From contig CAZTWG010000022.1 of NCBI GenBank assembly GCA_964617525.1, positions 1-7,528 on the forward strand: a stretch of DNA of 7,528 bases, written 5' to 3'. The DNA comes from an uncultured Gammaproteobacteria bacterium (GTDB lineage: Bacteria > Patescibacteriota > Patescibacteriia > UBA2591 > UBA6264). Both the position numbers and the translations under genes were made by a program. Below, piece by piece: positions 1,232-7,304 of this stretch (the stretch's first letter is position 1; each line of letters starts with the position of its first letter). A model generated the notes under the pieces. That model saw nothing but the letters and a program-made list of their open reading frames with translations, was not told the DNA's origin and did no database searches.

Positions 1232-2554
1232 ATGATTTATCCTCTTGTATTTTTTTCTATATTCTTTATTTGGTTAAGCTGGAATTATCAAAAATGGTCA
1301 TTATTTTTGATTTTAGCAATTTTGCCATCTTACCAGATTAGATTTCAGGCTTTTGGGATTCCTTTAACTTTTCTGGAAGTTTTGATTTTAATTTTATTCG
1401 CTGTTTGGTTTGTTAAAAAAATAAAACACAAACAATATCCTATTTTTGATTACAAAAAGTTAGGAATATGGTTTTGGTTACTTCTGTCATGGCTTCTAAT
1501 CTCAACAATAGTGATGTTTGTGTCCCCTGATCTACGAGCTGGAGCTGGCGTTTGGAAGGCATATTTTTTAGAACCAATTTTATTTCTTGTTGTGTTTTTA
1601 GATATAATAAGAAATAAAAAGGATTTAATATTGGCGATTAAAGCTTTGGTCTTCCCCGGTTTATTGGTTGTTTTTTATACTTTTTATCAAAAAATTATTG
1701 GTCAAGGGGTTTGGAGCACTGAAGTTTGGGGACAGCCAAAGATTTTAAGAGCAACTGGGTTATTCCCTCATCCTAATTTTCTGGGTTTATATATTGGCCC
1801 TTTATTCATATTGGGATTGGGATATATATTTTTGAGTTTCAAAAAAAATATTTTATCTATTATTAAAATTTTAGTCTTTTCAATATTATTTTTGGGTTCT
1901 CTTGTTTTTGCTAGGTCTGAAGGAGCAATCGTAGCTATTTTTATCGCTTTATTCTTTTGCGCCATGTTTTACAAACCAATCAGAAAATGGGCCTTAGTCT
2001 TGGTTTTAGTTTCTATTTTGTTTTTATCGTCTTCTTCTGCCCCGCGCCATTATTTAACAGAAAAAATATTTTTTCAAGACCTTTCCGGACGTTTGAGAAT
2101 TAATATTTGGAAAGGTGCTTTAGAAATGTTAAAAGAAAAGCCTATTTTAGGCGTAGGATTAAATGGGTATCGCGCTTTGGCCCCTCAATATCAAAAACGT
2201 TATTACGACAAAGATACTCAAGAATTAATTTCAGTTGAAACTCATCCTTATCCGCATAATTTGTTTTTAACGATTTGGTTGGAATTAGGGTTGTTGGGTT
2301 TAATTATTTTTTTCTTGATTCTTTTCCAATTTTTTAAACAAGGTCTTAAAAATTTTAAGAAGGAACCGATTTTAATTGGCTCAATTATGGGTGCGATGAT
2401 GGTTATCTTAATCCATGGATTAGTTGATACCCCATATTTTAAAAATGATTTATCAATTCTTTTTTGTATAATTATTGGAATGATGATAATTATATCACGG
2501 AGAGGTACCGAAGTGGTCATAACGGCATCGCCTCGAAAGCGATTGGTCCCGTAA
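1232..2554 (+). CDS. O-antigen ligase / Wzy_C-family polytopic membrane protein
   Basis: 440-aa multi-TM ORF. ARSEGAIVAIFIALFF and the periplasmic-loop segment ETHPYPHNLFLTIWLELGLLGLIIFF match by eye the RS..A and H.HN.(F/Y)L..l.E.G..G signatures of the O-antigen ligase/polymerase (Wzy_C) domain. There is no stop before the tRNA: the last 56 nt (2499-2554, peptide RRGTEVVITASPRKRLVP) read through the tRNA-Ser gene, so the true C-terminus is uncertain. Confidence 0.7.
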   Translation: MIYPLVFFSIFFIWLSWNYQKWSLFLILAILPSYQIRFQAFGIPLTFLEVLILILFAVWFVKKIKHKQYPIFDYKKLGIWFWLLLSWLLISTIVMFVSPDLRAGAGVWKAYFLEPILFLVVFLDIIRNKKDLILAIKALVFPGLLVVFYTFYQKIIGQGVWSTEVWGQPKILRATGLFPHPNFLGLYIGPLFILGLGYIFLSFKKNILSIIKILVFSILFLGSLVFARSEGAIVAIFIALFFCAMFYKPIRKWALVLVLVSILFLSSSSAPRHYLTEKIFFQDLSGRLRINIWKGALEMLKEKPILGVGLNGYRALAPQYQKRYYDKDTQELISVETHPYPHNLFLTIWLELGLLGLIIFFLILFQFFKQGLKNFKKEPILIGSIMGAMMVILIHGLVDTPYFKNDLSILFCIIIGMMIIISRRGTEVVITASPRKRLVP

Positions 2555-2589
2555 GGGGCACGTGGGTTCGAATCCCACCCTCTCCGCCA
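2499..2589 (+). tRNA. tRNA-Ser (anticodon CGA), class II with long variable arm, CCA encoded
   Basis: Cloverleaf folded by eye. Acceptor GGAGAGG (2499-2505) pairs with CCTCTCC (2579-2585). D stem CCG/CGG. Anticodon stem ATCGC/GCGAT with loop CTCGAAA (anticodon CGA at 2534-2536). Long variable arm (TGGTCCCGTAAGGGGCAC). T arm GTGGG-TTCGAAT-CCCAC. Discriminator G2586 and CCA at 2587-2589. Confidence 0.9.
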
Positions 2590-2657
2590 TTAAACCTCGC
2601 TAACGCTTCGCTTTGATTGGCTATATGCACTACACTTATATACTCAAAAGTTTAAAA
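2584..2657 (+). repeat. Left copy of imperfect direct repeat (att-like): last 6 nt of tRNA-Ser plus downstream sequence including the GIY-YIG gene start
   Basis: CCGCCATTAAAC (2584-2595) is identical to 6279-6290. After an indel (17 nt here vs 5 nt in the right copy), 2613-2657 matches 6296-6340 at 43 of 45 positions by hand alignment, including a 32-nt perfect run TTGATTGGCTATATGCACTACACTTATATACT. Confidence 0.85.
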
Positions 2658-2807
2658 CAAGACGAGGCCATTTGTATTGACTATACCAATGATTTGAAAT
2701 CAAGATTAACACAATATAATTTAAAACACACTGGTTATAGTAATAAATATTTACCATTGGGAGTAGAAAGCTATTTTGTGTTTGCAGAACAATTGCGCGC
2801 CCTCTGA
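2625..2807 (+). pseudogene. Truncated/degenerate small stand-alone GIY-YIG nuclease gene
   Basis: MHYTYILKSLKQDEAICIDYTNDLKSRLTQYN... aligns by eye to the small GIY-YIG (UPF0213/URI-type) pattern hY.YIL.s..d..lYIGyTnDLkrRl.eHN. However YIG reads CID and EHN reads QYN. The ORF stops at 2805-2807, about 14 nt after composition switches to GC-rich near 2791 and before the conserved C-terminal Glu-containing region. The ORF track starts it at TTG 2613; ATG 2625 fits the family N-terminus better. Confidence 0.6.
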
Positions 2808-2959
2808 AAAAATTCTAAAAAGGAAAGGGAAAATTTCTGATCAGTCCCTCTCTCCAAGTGTTCGGGCGATGCCACAGGGCTTTGCTCGGATGGCTCGGCA
2901 TTCCTTCTCCAGACCCTTTCCTGCCAAGCCGTCCTCGCTTCTGGTAGCGGGCAGGCAAT
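2791..2959. other. GC-rich non-coding block with short inverted termini (MITE-like unit or structured RNA; unassigned)
   Basis: Composition jumps abruptly inside the GIY-YIG ORF. The left edge ATTGCGCGCCCTC (2792-2804) matches the reverse complement of the right edge (ATTGCCTGCCCGC, from 2947-2959) at 10 of 13 positions. It contains local hairpins, e.g. CCTGCC (2920-2925) with GGCAGG (2950-2955). The + strand ORF 2776-2979 and a 49-codon minus-strand ORF show no recognisable protein features. Confidence 0.35.
2921..2959 (+). repeat. Left arm of 39-nt GC-rich inverted repeat bracketing the HTH/ATPase genes
   Basis: CTGCCAAGCCGTCCTCGCTTCTGGTAGCGGGCAGGCAAT matches the reverse complement of 6178-6216 (CTGCCAAGCCATCCTCGCTTTGGGAAGCAGGCGGGCAAT) at 33 of 39 positions by hand count. 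If the arms paired as RNA, that gives 33 Watson-Crick pairs, 2 G-U pairs and 4 mismatches. Weaker similarity extends outward (CCAGACCC at 2910-2917 vs reverse complement CCAGTCCC). Confidence 0.85.
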
Positions 2960-2997
2960 TATTTACAAAGACGCAATAACTTAGTATCATTTTAGTA

Positions 2998-3024
2998 TTG
3001 ATTGGAAATATTACTTATACCTAT
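2998..3024 (+). repeat. Possible third, degenerate copy of the direct-repeat core / GIY-YIG 5-prime end
   Basis: TTGATTGGAAATATTACTTATACCTAT matches TTGATTGGCTATATGCACTACACTTAT (2613-2639 and 6296-6322) at 19 of 27 positions ungapped, with the first 8 nt identical. It keeps the same frame (MIGNITYTY vs MIGYMHYTY in the ORF track). Downstream words shared with the right copy (ATTTTAA, TATT-AAATT, ATTAGTG) sit in the same order with small gaps. Short and AT-rich, so chance is not excluded. Confidence 0.4.
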
Positions 3025-3050
3025 TTTAATACTATTAAATTATTAGTGAA

Positions 3051-3248
3051 ATGGCAAACATTGCTGACGACATACGAAAGGCTCGAAAGAAAAAAGGGGC
3101 TATCGCTGGGCAAGCTCGCCCACGAGGCGGGCGTTGCATGCAACACGGTTGTGAAGATTGAATTAGAGAACAAAACCCCGAACATTAAAATTTTTGCGGG
3201 GTTGTCGCAAATGCATTAGATGTTTCCGTTAATGAGTTAATCAATTAG
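3051..3248 (+). pseudogene. XRE/Cro-type helix-turn-helix regulator with interrupted reading frame
   Basis: No single frame encodes the whole domain. Frame of ATG 3051 gives MANIADDIRKARKKKG and then hits TGA at 3159-3161. The frame of ORF 2998-3219 gives LSLGKLAHEAGVACNTVVKIELENKTPNIKIFAG, the helix-turn-helix core. The first frame then resumes at about 3198 with VVANALDVSVNELIN and stop 3246-3248. The switches fall in the A6G4 run (3091-3099) and the G4 run (3198-3201). Total length 198 nt is a multiple of 3. The stop lies 3 nt before the ATG of the 974-aa ORF. Confidence 0.65.
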
Positions 3249-3251
3249 CTT

Positions 3252-6176
3252 ATGGAAAACCCAAAATTTGAAGCACAATTCGCGGAAAGAAAAAAAACGC
3301 TCGAGTCTTCGCGAAAAGAAATTAACGAATTTCTCAAACAGGAAACTTTAGACCAGAGAGACAGGCTTAGGTTGACGCGTGTTTTGCAACTTGTAGAACG
3401 TTACCGACCGGAACGGGAAGGAGAGGGAGAAAAAGTTAATAAGTGGAAAACATATCTCGAAAGTGTTTATCGTCTTCTGCCAAATAGAAGGAAATCACAA
3501 AAACCGATTCAGAATATTTCTGCTCGCTCATATTTGCTTGCAGAAAAAACCATCGCCTCTTTACGCGATTTGAGGCACGTAGATTTTCAACTGGAAGAAG
3601 AAAGTGGTTTTTCGGAAGATGAAGTTTTAAATCAAGAAAGACCAAAAGAAGTAGAGCGTGAAGAAACGCTAGATACATCACTTACTCTTGAATACGAAAA
3701 GAAAAATTGGGGCGTAGAACGAATTTGTCTTGATGGTATACAAAATCACTTACCGTCCGACTCGAAAGGTGAACATGTTTGGGTACGATGTTTGGTTGAC
3801 GGCAAGTGGGTTACGCTCGATGAAGCAAGACAGAGAAAGGACAAAATAGAAGCTGTAAGATTTGCCGATGACGGCGTTGGATTTGATGTCAAAAATCTGA
3901 CTCTTTTGTACTCCACAAAATCGGGGGAAGAAGAGTCAAGCGGGCAGTTTGGAGAAGGCATGAAAATGATGGCCGCCGCCGCTCTTCGCGAAGGACTGGA
4001 GCCGGAGATGGAATCGCAAACATGGCGGGCAAAGCCAACCCCCAAAGAGGTTAAACTTTACGATACGCGACATAAAAAAGAGCAAGGCATTCAGCAACTT
4101 TCTTTTAAAGTTGAGCATCTGACGGGAGAACCAATGATTGGATCTCGTACCACTTTTAATAGGCCAACAGAGGCATTTGTTGACGAGCTAATGCAAATTG
4201 AGAAAAAGGTTTTGGCTTTGCGCGAAAACTATCGTCCCGCTTTTGTGGGAAGTACTGGAGAAATTGTTGACCGAGAATCCGGAGGATTATTTGTAAAGGG
4301 TATTTATGTGGCTGGAAAGAAAACGCTATTTTCTTATAACTTTGAAGATGTAGAAACTAACAGAGACCGCAATACAATAGTTTCTGAGGGCATAGAGCGA
4401 AGAATTGCTAGAATAGTCAGAGAAATTTCTGACAAGCGACTCGTTAAAACAATGTTGCAGAAAAGTATTTTGGAGCCCGGTGCAGTAGAAAGTTCGTATT
4501 ATAATTTTGAAGCTGAGTACCCGAGTGTTTGGATTGACGGGTTCCACGAAGCATTTGGTGGAGATGCAGTATTGGATACGGGTTTCAAAATCCCAGAGGC
4601 ATTAAACGACAAGCCGATTAACAAAGTCAAATTGCCCTCAGGTATGGCAAATTTACTTTTACGCGCAGGAATAAAAACTGACCGAGAAGCAACACCTGAT
4701 TTTTGGGATGAGACGATACCAACATCTTTGACTCTTGAATACGGAAAAGATATTTGGAACGAAGAAAGAATCTTACTCGACGCTGTACAAAATCATTTAC
4801 CGCATGACTCTGGTGGGTCAACCATTGGCTTACGTTTCAAAACGAAAGATGGGAAATGGCACCCGTTTTCTGAGTTACCAGATACTCCTGACCAACAGGT
4901 TCAGGCACTAAAAATTTATGATGATGGACGGGGATATGATTCCCGTTTGCTTGGCTTTTTCTACTCAACGAAAGGAGCAAGCGAAAGCACAGGAAAATTT
5001 GGTGAGGGGTTAAAAATGCTTTGTGTTGCTTCGCTACGCAAAGGTGTTGATATGACCTTGTGTTCACAAAACTGGTCTGCCAAACCGCGCGCGCTTAAGC
5101 AAGAAATAGACGGTGAAGAAATTGACCAGCTTGTTTTTGACGTAACGCACGCTGTTAAGAAACGGGAAATGGACGACGACAAAGGCATTTACCAAAGCAG
5201 TTCGACTACATTTTCAAACCCGACATTGGAATTGTTGCAGGAGTTTCGCCAAATAAACAAGAAAGTTTTGGCAATAGAAAAAACCAAGCCAGTCGAAAAA
5301 ACGCCAAACGGAGACGTCCTTTCGCTTGAAGGTGGAATGGTATATGTTCGCGAATTACTTATCCCTGGCGACCACAATTTGCTTTTTACTTATCATTTAC
5401 CAAGATTAGAGATTAAGAACAGAGACAGAAGTTTTGTTGATCAGCAAGAGCTTACTCCAGCCATCGCACAAATTTGGTCGCAAACCGAAAACCCCGAAGT
5501 TATAAAAAGCTTTTTGTTCAAAGCAAATCTTGAAGCACAAAAAGGTGGTGGAAAAGATAAAATAGAGTTTTCTATGGATTTTTCGCCAAAAGATAGAGAA
5601 AACTGGAAAAAGATTTTTGAGGAGATTTTTGGCGAGGATACGGCAATTCGTGATATGCGATCTGAAGATTATGACGCTATGCAACAGAATAAACACGTTG
5701 GTTTGGATCTTGTATCTTTTCCGTCGTCTGTTTATCGTGTTTTGCAAAGGCTGGGACTGCCAACTTATGAATCTCGTCTACAAGAAATGACTGACGTTGA
5801 GCATATTCCCGATGAGGAACTGACAGCCGAAGAGAAAGCGTTGATGGAAGTTTTGACGGCGATTGACGAATACCTACCGAACAATCGCCAATCTGATATA
5901 CACGTATACAAACGCAAGTCCGCGGGCCAAAAAGTTGCCGCCGGATATTCCGATGGGGTAAGCATTCACCTTTTGCGCGAGACATTAACAGATTTTACTC
6001 GCGCTGCTGATGTATATGTCCATGAAAAAACTCATCACAATACTGGTGGCTCGCAAGATGCAAGTTCTGATTTTAGAGATTATCTTACCTTCGCGTTGGG
6101 GAAACTTGCGCTTGATCAATTAAAAAAAGTCAGGCCGGATTTAATAAAGCCAGAAGCGCAAGGGAGCGAGCTATAG
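3252..6176 (+). CDS. 974-aa protein: N-terminal charged helical region, two tandem GHKL (Bergerat-fold) ATPase-like modules, C-terminal HExxH zincin-like domain
   Basis: Long uninterrupted ORF, so coding status is very likely. Module 1 (aa 137-476) and module 2 (aa 486-838) align along their whole length. Each carries LD.(I/V)QNHLP.D (N-box-like; D161/N165 and D510/N514). Each carries a G1-box-like motif (DDGVGF at 206-211, DDGRGY at 557-562). Each carries YSTK......G(Q/K)FGEG(M/L)KM (G2-box-like; 220-239 and 571-589) and (R/S)TTF(N/S).P. The tail has ...AAGYSDGVSIHLLRETL...VYVHEKTHH (HEKTH = aa 924-928, nt 6021-6035), resembling SprT/DUF45/ImmA-type minimal zincins. Domain calls are by eye; function is unknown. 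Confidence 0.75.
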   Translation: MENPKFEAQFAERKKTLESSRKEINEFLKQETLDQRDRLRLTRVLQLVERYRPEREGEGEKVNKWKTYLESVYRLLPNRRKSQKPIQNISARSYLLAEKTIASLRDLRHVDFQLEEESGFSEDEVLNQERPKEVEREETLDTSLTLEYEKKNWGVERICLDGIQNHLPSDSKGEHVWVRCLVDGKWVTLDEARQRKDKIEAVRFADDGVGFDVKNLTLLYSTKSGEEESSGQFGEGMKMMAAAALREGLEPEMESQTWRAKPTPKEVKLYDTRHKKEQGIQQLSFKVEHLTGEPMIGSRTTFNRPTEAFVDELMQIEKKVLALRENYRPAFVGSTGEIVDRESGGLFVKGIYVAGKKTLFSYNFEDVETNRDRNTIVSEGIERRIARIVREISDKRLVKTMLQKSILEPGAVESSYYNFEAEYPSVWIDGFHEAFGGDAVLDTGFKIPEALNDKPINKVKLPSGMANLLLRAGIKTDREATPDFWDETIPTSLTLEYGKDIWNEERILLDAVQNHLPHDSGGSTIGLRFKTKDGKWHPFSELPDTPDQQVQALKIYDDGRGYDSRLLGFFYSTKGASESTGKFGEGLKMLCVASLRKGVDMTLCSQNWSAKPRALKQEIDGEEIDQLVFDVTHAVKKREMDDDKGIYQSSSTTFSNPTLELLQEFRQINKKVLAIEKTKPVEKTPNGDVLSLEGGMVYVRELLIPGDHNLLFTYHLPRLEIKNRDRSFVDQQELTPAIAQIWSQTENPEVIKSFLFKANLEAQKGGGKDKIEFSMDFSPKDRENWKKIFEEIFGEDTAIRDMRSEDYDAMQQNKHVGLDLVSFPSSVYRVLQRLGLPTYESRLQEMTDVEHIPDEELTAEEKALMEVLTAIDEYLPNNRQSDIHVYKRKSAGQKVAAGYSDGVSIHLLRETLTDFTRAADVYVHEKTHHNTGGSQDASSDFRDYLTFALGKLALDQLKKVRPDLIKPEAQGSEL

Positions 6177-6177
6177 T

Positions 6178-6216
6178 ATTGCCCGCCTGCTTCCCAAAGC
6201 GAGGATGGCTTGGCAG
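6178..6216 (-). repeat. Right arm of the 39-nt GC-rich inverted repeat
   Basis: ATTGCCCGCCTGCTTCCCAAAGCGAGGATGGCTTGGCAG starts 2 nt after the stop of the 974-aa ORF and is the inverted partner of 2921-2959 (33/39). It can also fold on itself (CCCGC...GCGGG, 6182-6220) and is followed by a second small hairpin (CTGGGATTATCCCTCAG, 6222-6238). No U-tract follows. Confidence 0.85.
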
Positions 6217-6278
6217 CGGGACTGGGATTATCCCTCAGGATCGTTAACGAAAAAGGTTAGAATTTCATTCAAATAATA

Positions 6279-6340
6279 CCGCCATTAAACTTTGCTTGAT
6301 TGGCTATATGCACTACACTTATATACTTAAAATTTTAAAA
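6279..6340 (+). repeat. Right copy of the imperfect direct repeat (att-like)
   Basis: CCGCCATTAAAC, then a 5-nt spacer, then TTGATTGGCTATATGCACTACACTTATATACTTAAAATTTTAAAA. See the left copy at 2584-2657. Only CCGCCA of the tRNA is duplicated; the sequence just upstream (GGTTAGAATTTC, 6255-6266) only faintly recalls a T-arm. Confidence 0.85.
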
Positions 6341-6346
6341 TATTGA
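6308..6346 (+). pseudogene. 12-codon stub of a second GIY-YIG gene copy
   Basis: ATG 6308 encodes MHYTYILKILKY and then TGA (6344-6346). This is the same N-terminus as the 2625 copy. Weak colinear similarity continues: TTGAAAT at 2694 vs 6343 and ATATTTwCCAyTG at 2747 vs 6395, with spacing 53 vs 52 nt. That implies a decayed paralogue with a roughly 34-nt deletion. Confidence 0.5.
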
Positions 6347-6634
6347 AATTGTAAATTAGTGGTGAGTTTTGAGTAAAATTTTGTATGAACCAATATATTT
6401 TCCACTGCCTCTGGTTAATGTGGAACCAAAACAGATAAATTTTCTTTTTCTTTTAAAAGGAAATTTATCTATTTTAACGTTTTGCTATTTATAAAATTAT
6501 AGAAACATTTTCCTATAATAATTTTATTTTTATTATTGTTCATTTTTTAAAAATTTTTATTGAAAGTATTTTTAATTATTTTGTTGCTATTATGAATTTT
6601 TTGATAAATTTATCTTATCGTTAAACTAAATAAC

Positions 6635-6663
6635 TTGACAAATACCCCATGGGGGTATATAAT
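6635..6663 (+). promoter_or_regulatory. Sigma-70-type promoter, TTGACA - 17 nt - TATAAT
   Basis: TTGACA at 6635-6640 and TATAAT at 6658-6663, with an exact 17-nt spacer, about 30 nt upstream of the ATG at 6693. Both hexamers match consensus. Confidence 0.7.
6642..6658. promoter_or_regulatory. Palindromic operator candidate ATACCCC-ATG-GGGGTAT overlapping the promoter spacer and -10
   Basis: Perfect 7-bp inverted repeat (6642-6648 and 6652-6658) around a 3-nt centre. The C/G tract flanked by AT-rich arms is the architecture described for CsoR/RcnR-family operators, and it sits directly upstream of a gene of that family. Confidence 0.6.
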
Positions 6664-6692: not shown

Positions 6693-6941
6693 ATGAGAAA
6701 AAACACAATAACTCAACGTTTAAACATCATTAAAGGTCAAATGGATGGACTAGCCAATCTTATCCAAAAAAAAGAAGATTGTCATAAAATAACAGAACAA
6801 TTTTATGCAATCAACGTTGGTTTAAAAAAAGTGATTGAAATGTATTTTAATGACAATTTATCTTTATGCACGAAATCTCTCAACCCTAAAAAAAGAAAAA
6901 CTATTGAGTTTTTATTAAAAGAAATAATTAAAAATAAATAA
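6693..6941 (+). CDS. CsoR/RcnR/FrmR-family (DUF156) transcriptional repressor
   Basis: 82 aa. RLNIIKGQMDGLANLIQKKEDCHKITEQFYAINVGLKKV matches by eye the family pattern RL.ri.GQ..g...mi.....C.d...Q..A...al..v. Cys30 and Cys59 occupy the X and Z ligand positions, and Asn55 sits where CsoR has His. Confidence 0.8.
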   Translation: MRKNTITQRLNIIKGQMDGLANLIQKKEDCHKITEQFYAINVGLKKVIEMYFNDNLSLCTKSLNPKKRKTIEFLLKEIIKNK

Positions 6942-6974: not shown

Positions 6975-7304
6975 ATGTTGAAAACAATTGAAGTAACAAA
7001 TACAAATTTTGAGGAAGAAGTTATAAAATCTGATTTGCCTGTTTTGGTAGATTTTTGGGCACCTTGGTGTCAGCCCTGTTTAATGATGGCACCCGTCTTA
7101 GAAGAACTCTCAGAAGAATTAGACGGTAAGTTGAAAATCTGTAAATTAAATACTGAAATTTCTGAAAATCAGCAATTGGCCGTGCAATATCAAATTCAAA
7201 GTATTCCTAATATGAAGCTTTTTAAGAATGGCAAGGTAGTAAAAGAATTTATTGGTCTTAGACCAAAGGATACTTTCAAGGCTGAGCTAGAGTTAGAGCT
7301 TTAA
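6975..7304 (+). CDS. trxA: Thioredoxin
   Basis: 109 aa. VLVDFWAPWCQPC...SIPNMKLFKNGK is the classic thioredoxin fold signature, including the cis-Pro motif (IPN in place of the usual IPT). The active site reads WCQPC (nt 7065-7079) rather than WCGPC. Confidence 0.9.
   Translation: MLKTIEVTNTNFEEEVIKSDLPVLVDFWAPWCQPCLMMAPVLEELSEELDGKLKICKLNTEISENQQLAVQYQIQSIPNMKLFKNGKVVKEFIGLRPKDTFKAELELEL

Follow-up and report, generated by a model that had tools for sequence, protein, structure and literature searches.

An islet without a recombinase gene at tRNA-Ser of a Patescibacteria genome as the probable cargo half of a small serine-recombinase element

How does a compositionally foreign islet come to lie between direct repeats at the 3' end of a tRNA gene when no recombinase gene accompanies it? 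This question is raised by a 7,528-nt stretch of DNA (the window; positions 1 to 7,528 of contig CAZTWG010000022.1, assembly GCA_964617525.1) from an uncultured bacterium deposited as a gammaproteobacterium and placed by GTDB in the Patescibacteriota, in which a cargo-bearing islet follows the gene for tRNA-Ser(CGA). Our findings make it very probable that the islet is the stranded cargo half, together with the right-hand attachment junction (attR), of a small integrative element that was put at the CCA end of this tRNA gene by a large serine recombinase (LSR). The initial annotation had taken the islet, from its composition, for foreign DNA at a kind of site where elements often integrate, the end of a tRNA gene; we uphold this view and regard the islet as horizontally acquired, and among the four origins it listed the decayed island is the one backed by evidence, in a specific LSR form. 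An "island without a recombinase" would thus become an explained relic, with an enzyme type, true boundaries and a cause of its immobility. Loci homologous or related to the window that were compared with it are labelled L001 to L124; L112, L117, L118, L119 and L120 are congeners.

The islet and its two unequal junctions

The features on which the argument depends are as follows.

2499-2589, plus strand: tRNA-Ser(CGA) with encoded CCA, the integration target (ARAGORN; Rfam tRNA model, 54 bits)
2584-2589, plus strand: core copy 1, CCGCCA (discriminator-proximal acceptor bases and CCA), in an attB-like context of tRNA, core and host downstream sequence
2584-2657, plus strand: left direct repeat
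2590-2794, plus strand: host-type tRNA-downstream sequence and 5' fragment of a GIY-YIG gene
2795-2967, plus strand: left arm, the inner 173 nt of a cargo-flanking arm, identified by homology to the arms of L005 and L124
2962-2990, plus strand: promoter-like site TTTACA-17-TATCAT of the cargo operon, its position next to the arm kept in L005 and L002
3051-3248, plus strand: pseudogene of an XRE-family helix-turn-helix regulator
3252-6176, plus strand: cargo gene, 974 codons, intact
6178-6228, minus strand: right arm remnant, the inner ~50 nt
6228-6284, minus strand: footprint of an LSR gene, C-terminal tail and stop
6279-6284, plus strand: core copy 2, CCGCCA, within attR (tail to its left, host sequence to its right)
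6279-6340, plus strand: right direct repeat, consisting of the core and the first 56 nt of host tRNA-downstream sequence
6308-6346, within and over the right repeat end: 12-codon GIY-YIG start remnant, MHYTYILKILKY and a stop

The direct repeats reported earlier (2584-2657 and 6279-6340) are real, as the word CCGCCATTAAAC is present exactly twice in the window, at 2584-2595 and 6279-6290, and the 32-mer TTGATTGGCTATATGCACTACACTTATATACT exactly twice, from 2613 and from 6296, with two matches to either word in none of 200 shuffles. The second block of the repeat (2613-2657 / 6296-6340) spans 45 nt at 96% identity, and the left copy is longer by about 11-12 bases (CTCGCTAACGC) between its two blocks. 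The reported contrast in composition is also real, GC in 300-nt windows being 0.37-0.51 over 2700-6300 and 0.19-0.36 in the flanks. The same structure, with differences only at the level of single-nucleotide polymorphisms (SNPs), was found in at least eight independent assemblies from ENA, NCBI, JGI and Logan, with the full arrangement in ENA ERZ27248110 and ERZ27248307 and NCBI GCA_053986565.1 and GCA_053985555.1, and concordant partial contigs in ERZ27248162, JGI 3300021488/509/512 and Logan SRR70510xx; the window and L001 differ at 37 positions.

The right-hand junction retains a trace of the enzyme. The minus strand from 6284 to 6231 translates to WRYYLNEILTFFVNDPEG (W-R-Y-Y-L-N-E-I-L-T-F-F-V-N-D-P-E-G, stop), and a hidden Markov model built from 16 database recombinase tails matches this window tail with E=1.7e-6 as its sole hit among 411 six-frame fragments, the next best scoring 0.48. 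The DNA agrees with this: the 73 nt of 6212-6284 share 78% identity with L124 1765-1835, which in L124 is the end of an intact recombinase gene. The window tail directly abuts CCGCCA, and its W-R codons are the reverse complement of this core. From its sequence, the right-hand direct repeat has the makeup of a site-specific junction (attR) with the tRNA-Ser target, reading tail, CCGCCA and host TTAAAC. The statement that the islet lacks a recombinase therefore stands for genes, since Pfam, NCBIfam and PHROGs scans found none among the islet open reading frames (ORFs) and a related serine recombinase, used as a tblastn query, had no match in the window, but it does not extend to the last 18 LSR codons, which persist at 6231-6284 on the minus strand. 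No transposase gene was found in the window by the same profile scans.

This junction also accounts for a point that had seemed atypical, namely that the direct repeat begins only 6 nt inside tRNA-Ser: the crossover core of the LSR is just CCGCCA, so the duplication takes in no more than 6 nt of the tRNA. The remainder of the repeat is not att core. Beyond CCGCCA it comprises the tRNA-downstream spacer and 12 codons from the start of the GIY-YIG gene, and thus duplicates the host flank.

The left-hand junction is of a different nature. While attR is present at 6228-6340, attL is absent from the window, and the left site is an intact attB-like junction in which the tRNA is followed by untouched target sequence, whose first 24 nt, including CGCTAAC, align with the tRNA flank of the congener L120. 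The GIY-YIG fragment starts at the ATG at 2625 and keeps about 57 codons, with its ORF continuing to a stop at 2805-2807 inside the arm; it matches residues 1-40 of the 78-position Pfam model at E=0.016, below threshold. Host-type sequence gives way at 2794/2795 to the left arm, which is entered halfway, at about position 175 of 350. The foreign DNA thus starts at about 2795, and not at 2590 where the edge had been drawn, and 2584-2794 consists of the intact attB-like site and host-type sequence. Missing on the left are the recombinase half, attL, the second att site and the outer ~175 nt of the left arm, the part with recombinase tail and core. This left edge, the recombinase tail, the regulator pseudogene and an inverted repeat went unmentioned in the initial annotation.

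That inverted repeat (2921-2959 / 6178-6216; 39 nt, 85% identity) brackets the GC-rich core. The left arm, 2795-2967, is 79% identical to L005 3495-3670 and 84% identical to L124 1898-2063, and the right arm has about 230 nt deleted internally relative to the arms of relatives; the arms of different loci are homologous to one another and to window positions 2795-2967 and 6178-6216. Inverted repeats of 46-313 nt that are 88-100%, mostly 97-100%, identical occur in 12 of the 15 loci whose cargo protein is at least 84% identical; the near-perfect arms of relatives measure 50-340 nt overall. In the relatives the right arm begins 5-14 nt past the cargo stop codon, and the left arm ends 18-37 nt upstream of the ATG, or about 290-350 nt upstream where a regulator or other sequence intervenes. 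The outer end of a full-length arm is TGGCGG with the short frame W-R-Y-L-L-D-E-I-R-T-F-F-E-Q-N-P-D-stop, and a motif search located the recombinase tail at such junctions in 13 distinct loci, contigs of the window species excluded. Window-type arms flank the same cargo beside an LSR gene in L005 and L033, and a different cargo in L124. No target-site duplication lies beside the arm ends at any locus compared. Transposon ends or miniature inverted-repeat transposable elements were considered as an identity for the arms and rejected, the outer ends being a recombination core and a coding tail. A structured RNA gene in the arms was dropped as well, with folding modestly better than that of shuffles (z about -2.5), and an Rfam scan of the window and of the arms of L005-L007 matched only tRNAs. 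L035 (4384-4517) has a pair of recombinase tails that face each other across about 30 nt, one of them with the degenerate core CCGCTA, which suggests two elements or arms stacked at one site.

Complete elements and their recombinase in relatives

The enzyme that appears to have left this footprint can be examined in loci where it is intact. By domain content (Resolvase, Recombinase and Zn_ribbon_recom) it is an ordinary LSR; a recombinase with these three domains is not found in the window and is present in L005, L033, L124 and L122, which have the same arms or architecture. In L005 a 528-aa LSR gene lies beside tRNA-Ser(GCT) on the opposite strand, and its frame reads ...NAEIVNWR and then continues into antisense tRNA, while a second copy of the last 155 nt of the gene, 1.5 kb away, reads ...NAEIVNWR-YLLDEIRTFFEQNPD-stop. 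Reverse-complemented, the W-R codons TGG CGG give CCG CCA, the end of the tRNA. Integration sites in several states were recognized, with attL (tRNA, core, antisense recombinase) in L005 and L118/L119, attR (antisense tail, core, host flank) in L007 and intact attP in L005, L033, L121, L122 and L124; CCGCCA forms the junction in L005, L007, L118 and L121. These junction sequences indicate that the family integrates at tRNA CCA ends with the crossover in the enzyme's own W-R codons. The crossover core accordingly lies inside the recombinase ORF among the family, and in the window the tail is detached from any gene body.

The pattern extends well beyond these loci. When a database was searched with the reconstructed enzyme, 7,825 of the 8,000 candidates scored had E <= 0.001, those with a name being mostly from Patescibacteria, and the tails of the 120 best cluster representatives were then classified. 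The natural tail, ...NWR[YC]LLDEIRTFFEQNPD, was present in 20 of the 120; 63 carried ...NWR[RK]G[RW]DSNP..., which is the antisense translation of a tRNA T-arm; and of the other 37, most are cut off by a contig end or terminate ahead of the W-R codons. All 20 natural tails and all 63 antisense-tRNA tails switch after the W-R codons.

In the most complete loci, inverted copies of the 3' end of the recombinase gene stand on both sides of that gene (L005 1515-1669/3172-3326; L121 9768-9901/11394-11527; L124 1-119/1616-1734; L122 822-1123/2612-2917). Because the gene is bracketed by inverted 3' ends and occurs in both orientations relative to the tRNA and the cargo, its C-terminus would alternate between the natural tail and antisense-tRNA read-through. 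The cargo is likewise flanked by inverted copies of core, tail and arm in L005, L033, L122 and L124. Relative to the cargo, the recombinase half is oriented one way in L005 and L033 and the other way in L121, L122 and L124, these being different lineages. When the circle is closed on paper from the integrated L005 map, two inverted att-bearing repeats of up to ~500 nt would separate a recombinase half from a cargo half. What occupies the cargo half varies, with an XRE regulator first between the inverted arms in each of two further cases: L124 (2157-5432) has the regulator and Zn-ribbon/TPR/trypsin-like genes between arms homologous to those of the window, and L122 (3005-7529) has the regulator and an N6/N4 DNA methylase between arms of its own subtype. 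L005 and L033, like the window, have the regulator with the two-module ATPase gene. Other cargo of the L122/L124 type comprises a methylase and a HinfI-type restriction enzyme, and the cargos seen so far are the two-module GHKL protein of the window, the TPR/protease set and the methylase.

These observations suggest a broader, still tentative proposal, to which we give somewhat less than even credence: an undescribed class of mini integrative elements, widespread in bacteria of the candidate phyla radiation (CPR)/Patescibacteria, in which an LSR acts at the CCA ends of many tRNAs with the crossover in its own W-R codons, and in which two inverted att-bearing arms of 0.2-0.5 kb separate, in the manner of the 2-micron plasmid, a flippable recombinase half from an exchangeable XRE-led cargo half. 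In that class, recombination or inversion could swap the C-terminal 15-20 residues of the enzyme and so act as a built-in switch of its activity or directionality. One idea for why the arms are inverted is that a palindromic crossover dinucleotide (CG or GC in CCGCCA) removes the polarity of the site. A literature search returned no description of the element family, though its coverage was incomplete and a prior description is possible; the family appears to be an undescribed variant of serine-recombinase integrative elements. IMG/VR contained no cargo relative and a single phage-like contig (L123) with a 60%-identical recombinase that has a different tail.

Integrative elements and prophages that use LSRs include phiC31, Bxb1, SCCmec with its ccr recombinases, and Tn4451 with TnpX. 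The family described here shares with them its domain set, a very short identity core, hybrid attL and attR sites and the lack of a target duplication, and departs from them in targeting the CCA end of several different tRNAs, in placing the crossover in the last codons of its own recombinase and in having two inverted att-bearing arms. Serine integrases were not known to target tRNA genes according to the Islander paper (PMC4383910). An att site inside the integrase gene has been called exclusive to archaea, where it is found in SSV-type tyrosine integrases (PMC8371274). The resemblance to these SSV1-type "suicidal" enzymes of archaeal viruses and plasmids lies in that internal att site and in the tRNA target (PMC8371274); the differences are a serine enzyme, bacterial hosts and the exchange of only the last 15-20 codons, with no split into two large inactive pieces. 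In the tycheposon study of Prochlorococcus, 27 of 937 elements (tycheposons and cryptic elements together) carry an LSR (10.1101/2020.12.28.424599). Tycheposons and classic tRNA islands resemble the LSR family in having variable cargo at tRNA-adjacent hot spots, whereas they mostly use tyrosine integrases, leave a sizeable tRNA fragment as the repeat, lack inverted att-bearing arms and keep att outside the recombinase gene.

The arrangement in two halves has its closest counterparts elsewhere. With the yeast 2-micron Flp/FRT system it shares an inferred circle with two long inverted repeats that contain recombinase targets and delimit two halves, one encoding the recombinase. Flp, however, is a tyrosine recombinase and the 2-micron plasmid replicates, whereas the elements here integrate in the chromosome and have no replication genes that we could see, and, unlike in the 2-micron flip-flop, the two orientations come from different lineages. 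Serine invertases such as Hin and Gin, and the shufflons, act on segments that have a recombination site at each end, in inverted orientation, and the recombinase gene within or next to them. Inverted att-bearing arms flank both halves in L005, L121, L122 and L124, which would make these halves candidate invertible segments; the window has lost its left site. The repeats here exceed a plausible binding site by hundreds of bases and the system also integrates.

The analysis brings to light an abundant family of serine-recombinase elements in CPR bacteria. If confirmed, three features would be of interest to specialists: serine integrases that act on tRNA CCA ends, an att site inside a bacterial recombinase gene, and long inverted att-bearing arms with interchangeable regulator-led cassettes, which suggest an uncomplicated way for organisms with tiny genomes to exchange accessory genes, possibly for defence. 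Short-core serine integrases that recognize conserved tRNA ends could also serve genome engineering. As a separate observation, the reverse strand of L036 (~4220-4330) has an intact tRNA-Thr(CGT) followed by a second T-arm, acceptor end and CCA fragment, which looks like a displaced tRNA 3' end from an earlier integration at that hot spot.

Formation of the islet and competing explanations

A sequence of events that would produce the islet can be proposed from these parts. The original element would have consisted of a recombinase half and an XRE-led cargo half, with long inverted arms ending in core and recombinase tail. On integration, attL would have arisen where the tRNA and core met the antisense recombinase gene, and attR where the antisense tail and core met host sequence downstream. 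Later, the recombinase half, attL and the outer left arm would have been lost, and a second copy of the target, comprising tRNA, core, flank and the GIY-YIG fragment to 2794, would have come to stand in their place. Two routes to this outcome both fit, and we do not choose between them. In one, the left part was replaced by DNA of an element-less relative, with a homologous exchange on the left and an illegitimate one on the right near the shared GCGCGCCC; in the other, a tandem duplication arose first and the complete copy was then excised. Both would yield the observed direct repeats together with the loss of the sole sites and enzyme able to excise the islet. The islet should therefore now be fixed and immobile, with loss expected only through homologous recombination between the 60-75-nt repeats.

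Comparison with the genus places the acquisition in time and shows the hot spot at work. Three congeneric species, which share 78-81% identity in the Wzy protein and ~80-83% at the nucleotide level with the window species, have the gene order SpoIID, flippase, Wzy, tRNA-Ser(CGA), a variable stretch, tRNA-Ala, ClpP and RNase Y. For three of the four congener contigs the blastn alignment with the window ends at 2589, and for L120 it extends 24 nt beyond that; synteny resumes at the tRNA-Ala before ClpP, and the cargo gene is absent from the congener loci of all three species. The test named in the initial annotation, whether all relatives carry the same arrangement, has a divided outcome: all strains of the species carry the islet, and the three congeners (~80% nucleotide identity) do not, so the islet is neither ancient nor native. 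For the islet itself, absence is thus seen in congeners only. We conclude that the islet arrived when the genus had already diversified and that it has become fixed in the species sampled. Within one congener species, recognized by an identical Wzy protein, the same tRNA-Ser(CGA) end (about locus position 8352-8358) is empty in L117, where CCGCCA is followed by ATTTTTATT, and filled in L118/L119, where CCGCCA is followed by ATTTAGAATTTCAGC, the antisense C-terminus of an LSR (tblastn E=1e-8). This empty/filled polymorphism indicates that both the hot spot and the enzyme family are active in this genus. The interval between tRNA-Ser(CGA) and tRNA-Ala(CGC) differs in every congener, the shortest holding a single flavodoxin gene.

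Several observations weigh against an origin of the islet from an LSR element. Neither an empty site nor a complete element was found in the window species, in which all contigs with an identical CsoR-like or thioredoxin protein are filled or break in the repeat; the empty and filled sites compared belong to congeners at ~80% identity. In this species a recombinase gene is missing from the window and from the ~10 kb around it, and the case for a former one is built from the 18-codon footprint and arm homology. Recombination by the LSR family is deduced from junction sequences, and these locate the crossover to CCGCCA but not to one dinucleotide in it. The 2794/2795 junction is not site-specific, and serine-recombinase integration would not leave 56-68 nt of host flank as part of the repeat, so at least one further event has to be invoked. 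Finally, an 11-12-nt indel and 2 of 45 bases separate the repeat copies, while strains differ by only ~0.5%, which means that the event predates the strain radiation or that the copies come from different lineages.

These reservations have to be set against what other explanations would leave unaccounted for. A non-autonomous transposon with terminal inverted repeats at 2921-2959 and 6178-6216, mobilized by a transposase in trans, would explain inverted repeats that flank the cargo in the window and, in long and near-perfect form, in 12 of 15 close relatives. Yet no arm end has a target-site duplication, the identical part of the arms varies between 46 and 313 nt, full arms end in recombinase core and tail as att-bearing parts of a site-specific element do, and the window arms are truncated and only 85% alike; we regard this origin as very unlikely. 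The variant put forward earlier, a trans-mobilized non-autonomous element, finds no support in an islet without attL and with a left arm that has lost its att site. Less probable still is that GIY-YIG homing, or unequal recombination between GIY-YIG paralogs, brought in the cassette. Although the GIY-YIG 5' end makes up most of the repeat, the gene is the 57-codon sub-threshold fragment described above and not an intact nuclease travelling with the insert; no GIY-YIG relative occurs at any other locus compared, some 30 of them with a full-length cargo relative; and the tail-core junction and the arms would be left unexplained. Both GIY-YIG proposals of the initial annotation are set aside on these grounds, though homologous recombination within the GIY-YIG repeat may have taken part in the secondary rearrangement.

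A tRNA 3' end, flanking direct repeats and foreign GC are the familiar signs of a classic tRNA island, inserted by a tyrosine integrase that was later deleted and leaving a duplicated att core as its direct repeats. Against this stand the 6 nt of tRNA in the repeat, the serine-recombinase tail encoded to the left of the right-hand core, cargo relatives that in the loci compared lie beside serine recombinases and never beside tyrosine integrases, and a left junction made of untouched attB and host sequence. Where Islander looks for a tyrosine integrase aboard and a displaced tRNA 3' fragment as the repeat, the window has no integrase and 6 repeated nucleotides. The serine-recombinase tail in the window identifies the enzyme as an LSR and not as the integrase type classically expected at a tRNA, and we consider the tyrosine-integrase origin highly improbable. 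The least credible alternative, with next to no probability in our view, is an ancient native locus of functionally distinct composition, or an assembly chimera. Carriage by all sampled strains of the species is what a native locus predicts, but three congeners lack the islet and synteny breaks at the tRNA end, the cargo is 85-91% identical in distant CPR lineages, and a chimera is excluded by the matching assemblies, which are independent, come from three data sources and differ by SNPs only. A stranded half of an LSR element is thus the reading we favor, and the cargo that it left behind can be considered in that light.

The cargo and the neighboring genes

The stranded cargo half contains a broken regulator and an intact large gene. 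Compared with the intact 65-aa orthologues in L005 and L002, the XRE gene has a +1 in an A-run (A6G4), a 3-nt deletion and a +2 in a G-run. These frameshifts are compensating, leaving the first and last thirds in frame and the DNA-binding middle out of frame, and the repaired translation matches HTH_3 (Pfam, E=1.7e-6). Every strain has these lesions, which rules out sequencing errors. With the repressor dead, the 974-aa gene is probably expressed constitutively.

The 974-aa protein comprises two tandem Hsp90/sacsin-like GHKL ATPase modules and a C-terminal domain with an invariant HExxH motif (H924, E925, H928). It matches phrog_6077 twice (E=1e-31) and, below the Pfam and NCBIfam cut-offs, weakly matches the HATPase_c, HATPase_c_3 and sacsin N-terminal models; PADLOC and a sequence search of the PDB gave no match. 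Its AlphaFold (AF2) model has a pLDDT, the predicted local distance difference test score, of 78.6, and the top Foldseek matches are Hsp90 N-domains (probability 1.0, E=4e-4). Bergerat-fold motifs (QNHLP, DDGxGFD and GxFGEGxK) are found in both modules, with invariant residues N165, D206, G208, G210, G231 and G234-G236 in module 1 and N514, G559, G561, G581, G584 and G586 in module 2. With its N-box, G1 (DxGxG) and G2 (GxxGxG) elements, the cargo product is a predicted GHKL (Bergerat-fold) ATPase, resembling Hsp90/sacsin-type proteins in these motifs and in its Hsp90 N-domain fold, and unlike them in its tandem duplication and C-terminal HExxH domain. The internal duplication is still visible in the DNA (3660-3763 / 4707-4810; 104 nt, 72%, 1047 nt apart), and its spacing is kept in relatives.

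A direct count of 11 strain SNPs in the cargo gene gave 7 synonymous and 4 non-synonymous changes, with 5-8 synonymous and 2-4 non-synonymous differences among strains. That the gene is intact beside a dead regulator suggests that selection has retained it. More than 100 homologues of the protein are known, nearly all in Patescibacteria metagenome bins, and it is 85-91% identical in metagenome-assembled genomes labelled Saccharibacteria, Uhrbacteria and others. The GC content of the gene stays at 0.38-0.43 across hosts whose flanks range over 0.29-0.53, and it lies repeatedly beside a tRNA gene (Leu, Thr, Val, Ser or Arg). These sequence comparisons mark the cargo as a horizontally travelling cassette. 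A role in defence is our guess, by analogy with the restriction-modification cargo in L122. Two bins with close cargo relatives, L029 and L031, carry the label "uncultured Gammaproteobacteria" although their low GC and their gene content are CPR-like, and are probably mis-binned or mislabelled.

The host genes on either side of the islet in the window are the following.

13-1230: flippase-type polysaccharide biosynthesis gene
1232 to ~2497: O-antigen-ligase-type gene (Wzy)
6693-6941: CsoR-like repressor gene
6975-7304: thioredoxin gene

As publicly annotated (1232-2554, 440 aa), the O-antigen-ligase ORF overlaps tRNA-Ser by 56 nt (2499-2554) on the same strand, an overlap also present in congeners; either the gene and the tRNA truly overlap, or the protein ends earlier. 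The interval between the two tRNA genes holds CsoR/thioredoxin/GDH/TrxR/UDG genes in the window species (L009 2898-11008), six small genes in L112, a flavodoxin gene in L117 and two ArsP genes in L120, and only one 420-bp piece of it is common, to L009 and L112. The CsoR-like gene is preceded, at 6635-6663, by a site that matches the sigma-70 consensus perfectly (TTGACA-17-TATAAT), and upstream of this site the very AT-rich spacer contains a palindrome at 6428-6475 with 21-nt arms that are 90% complementary and a 6-nt loop.

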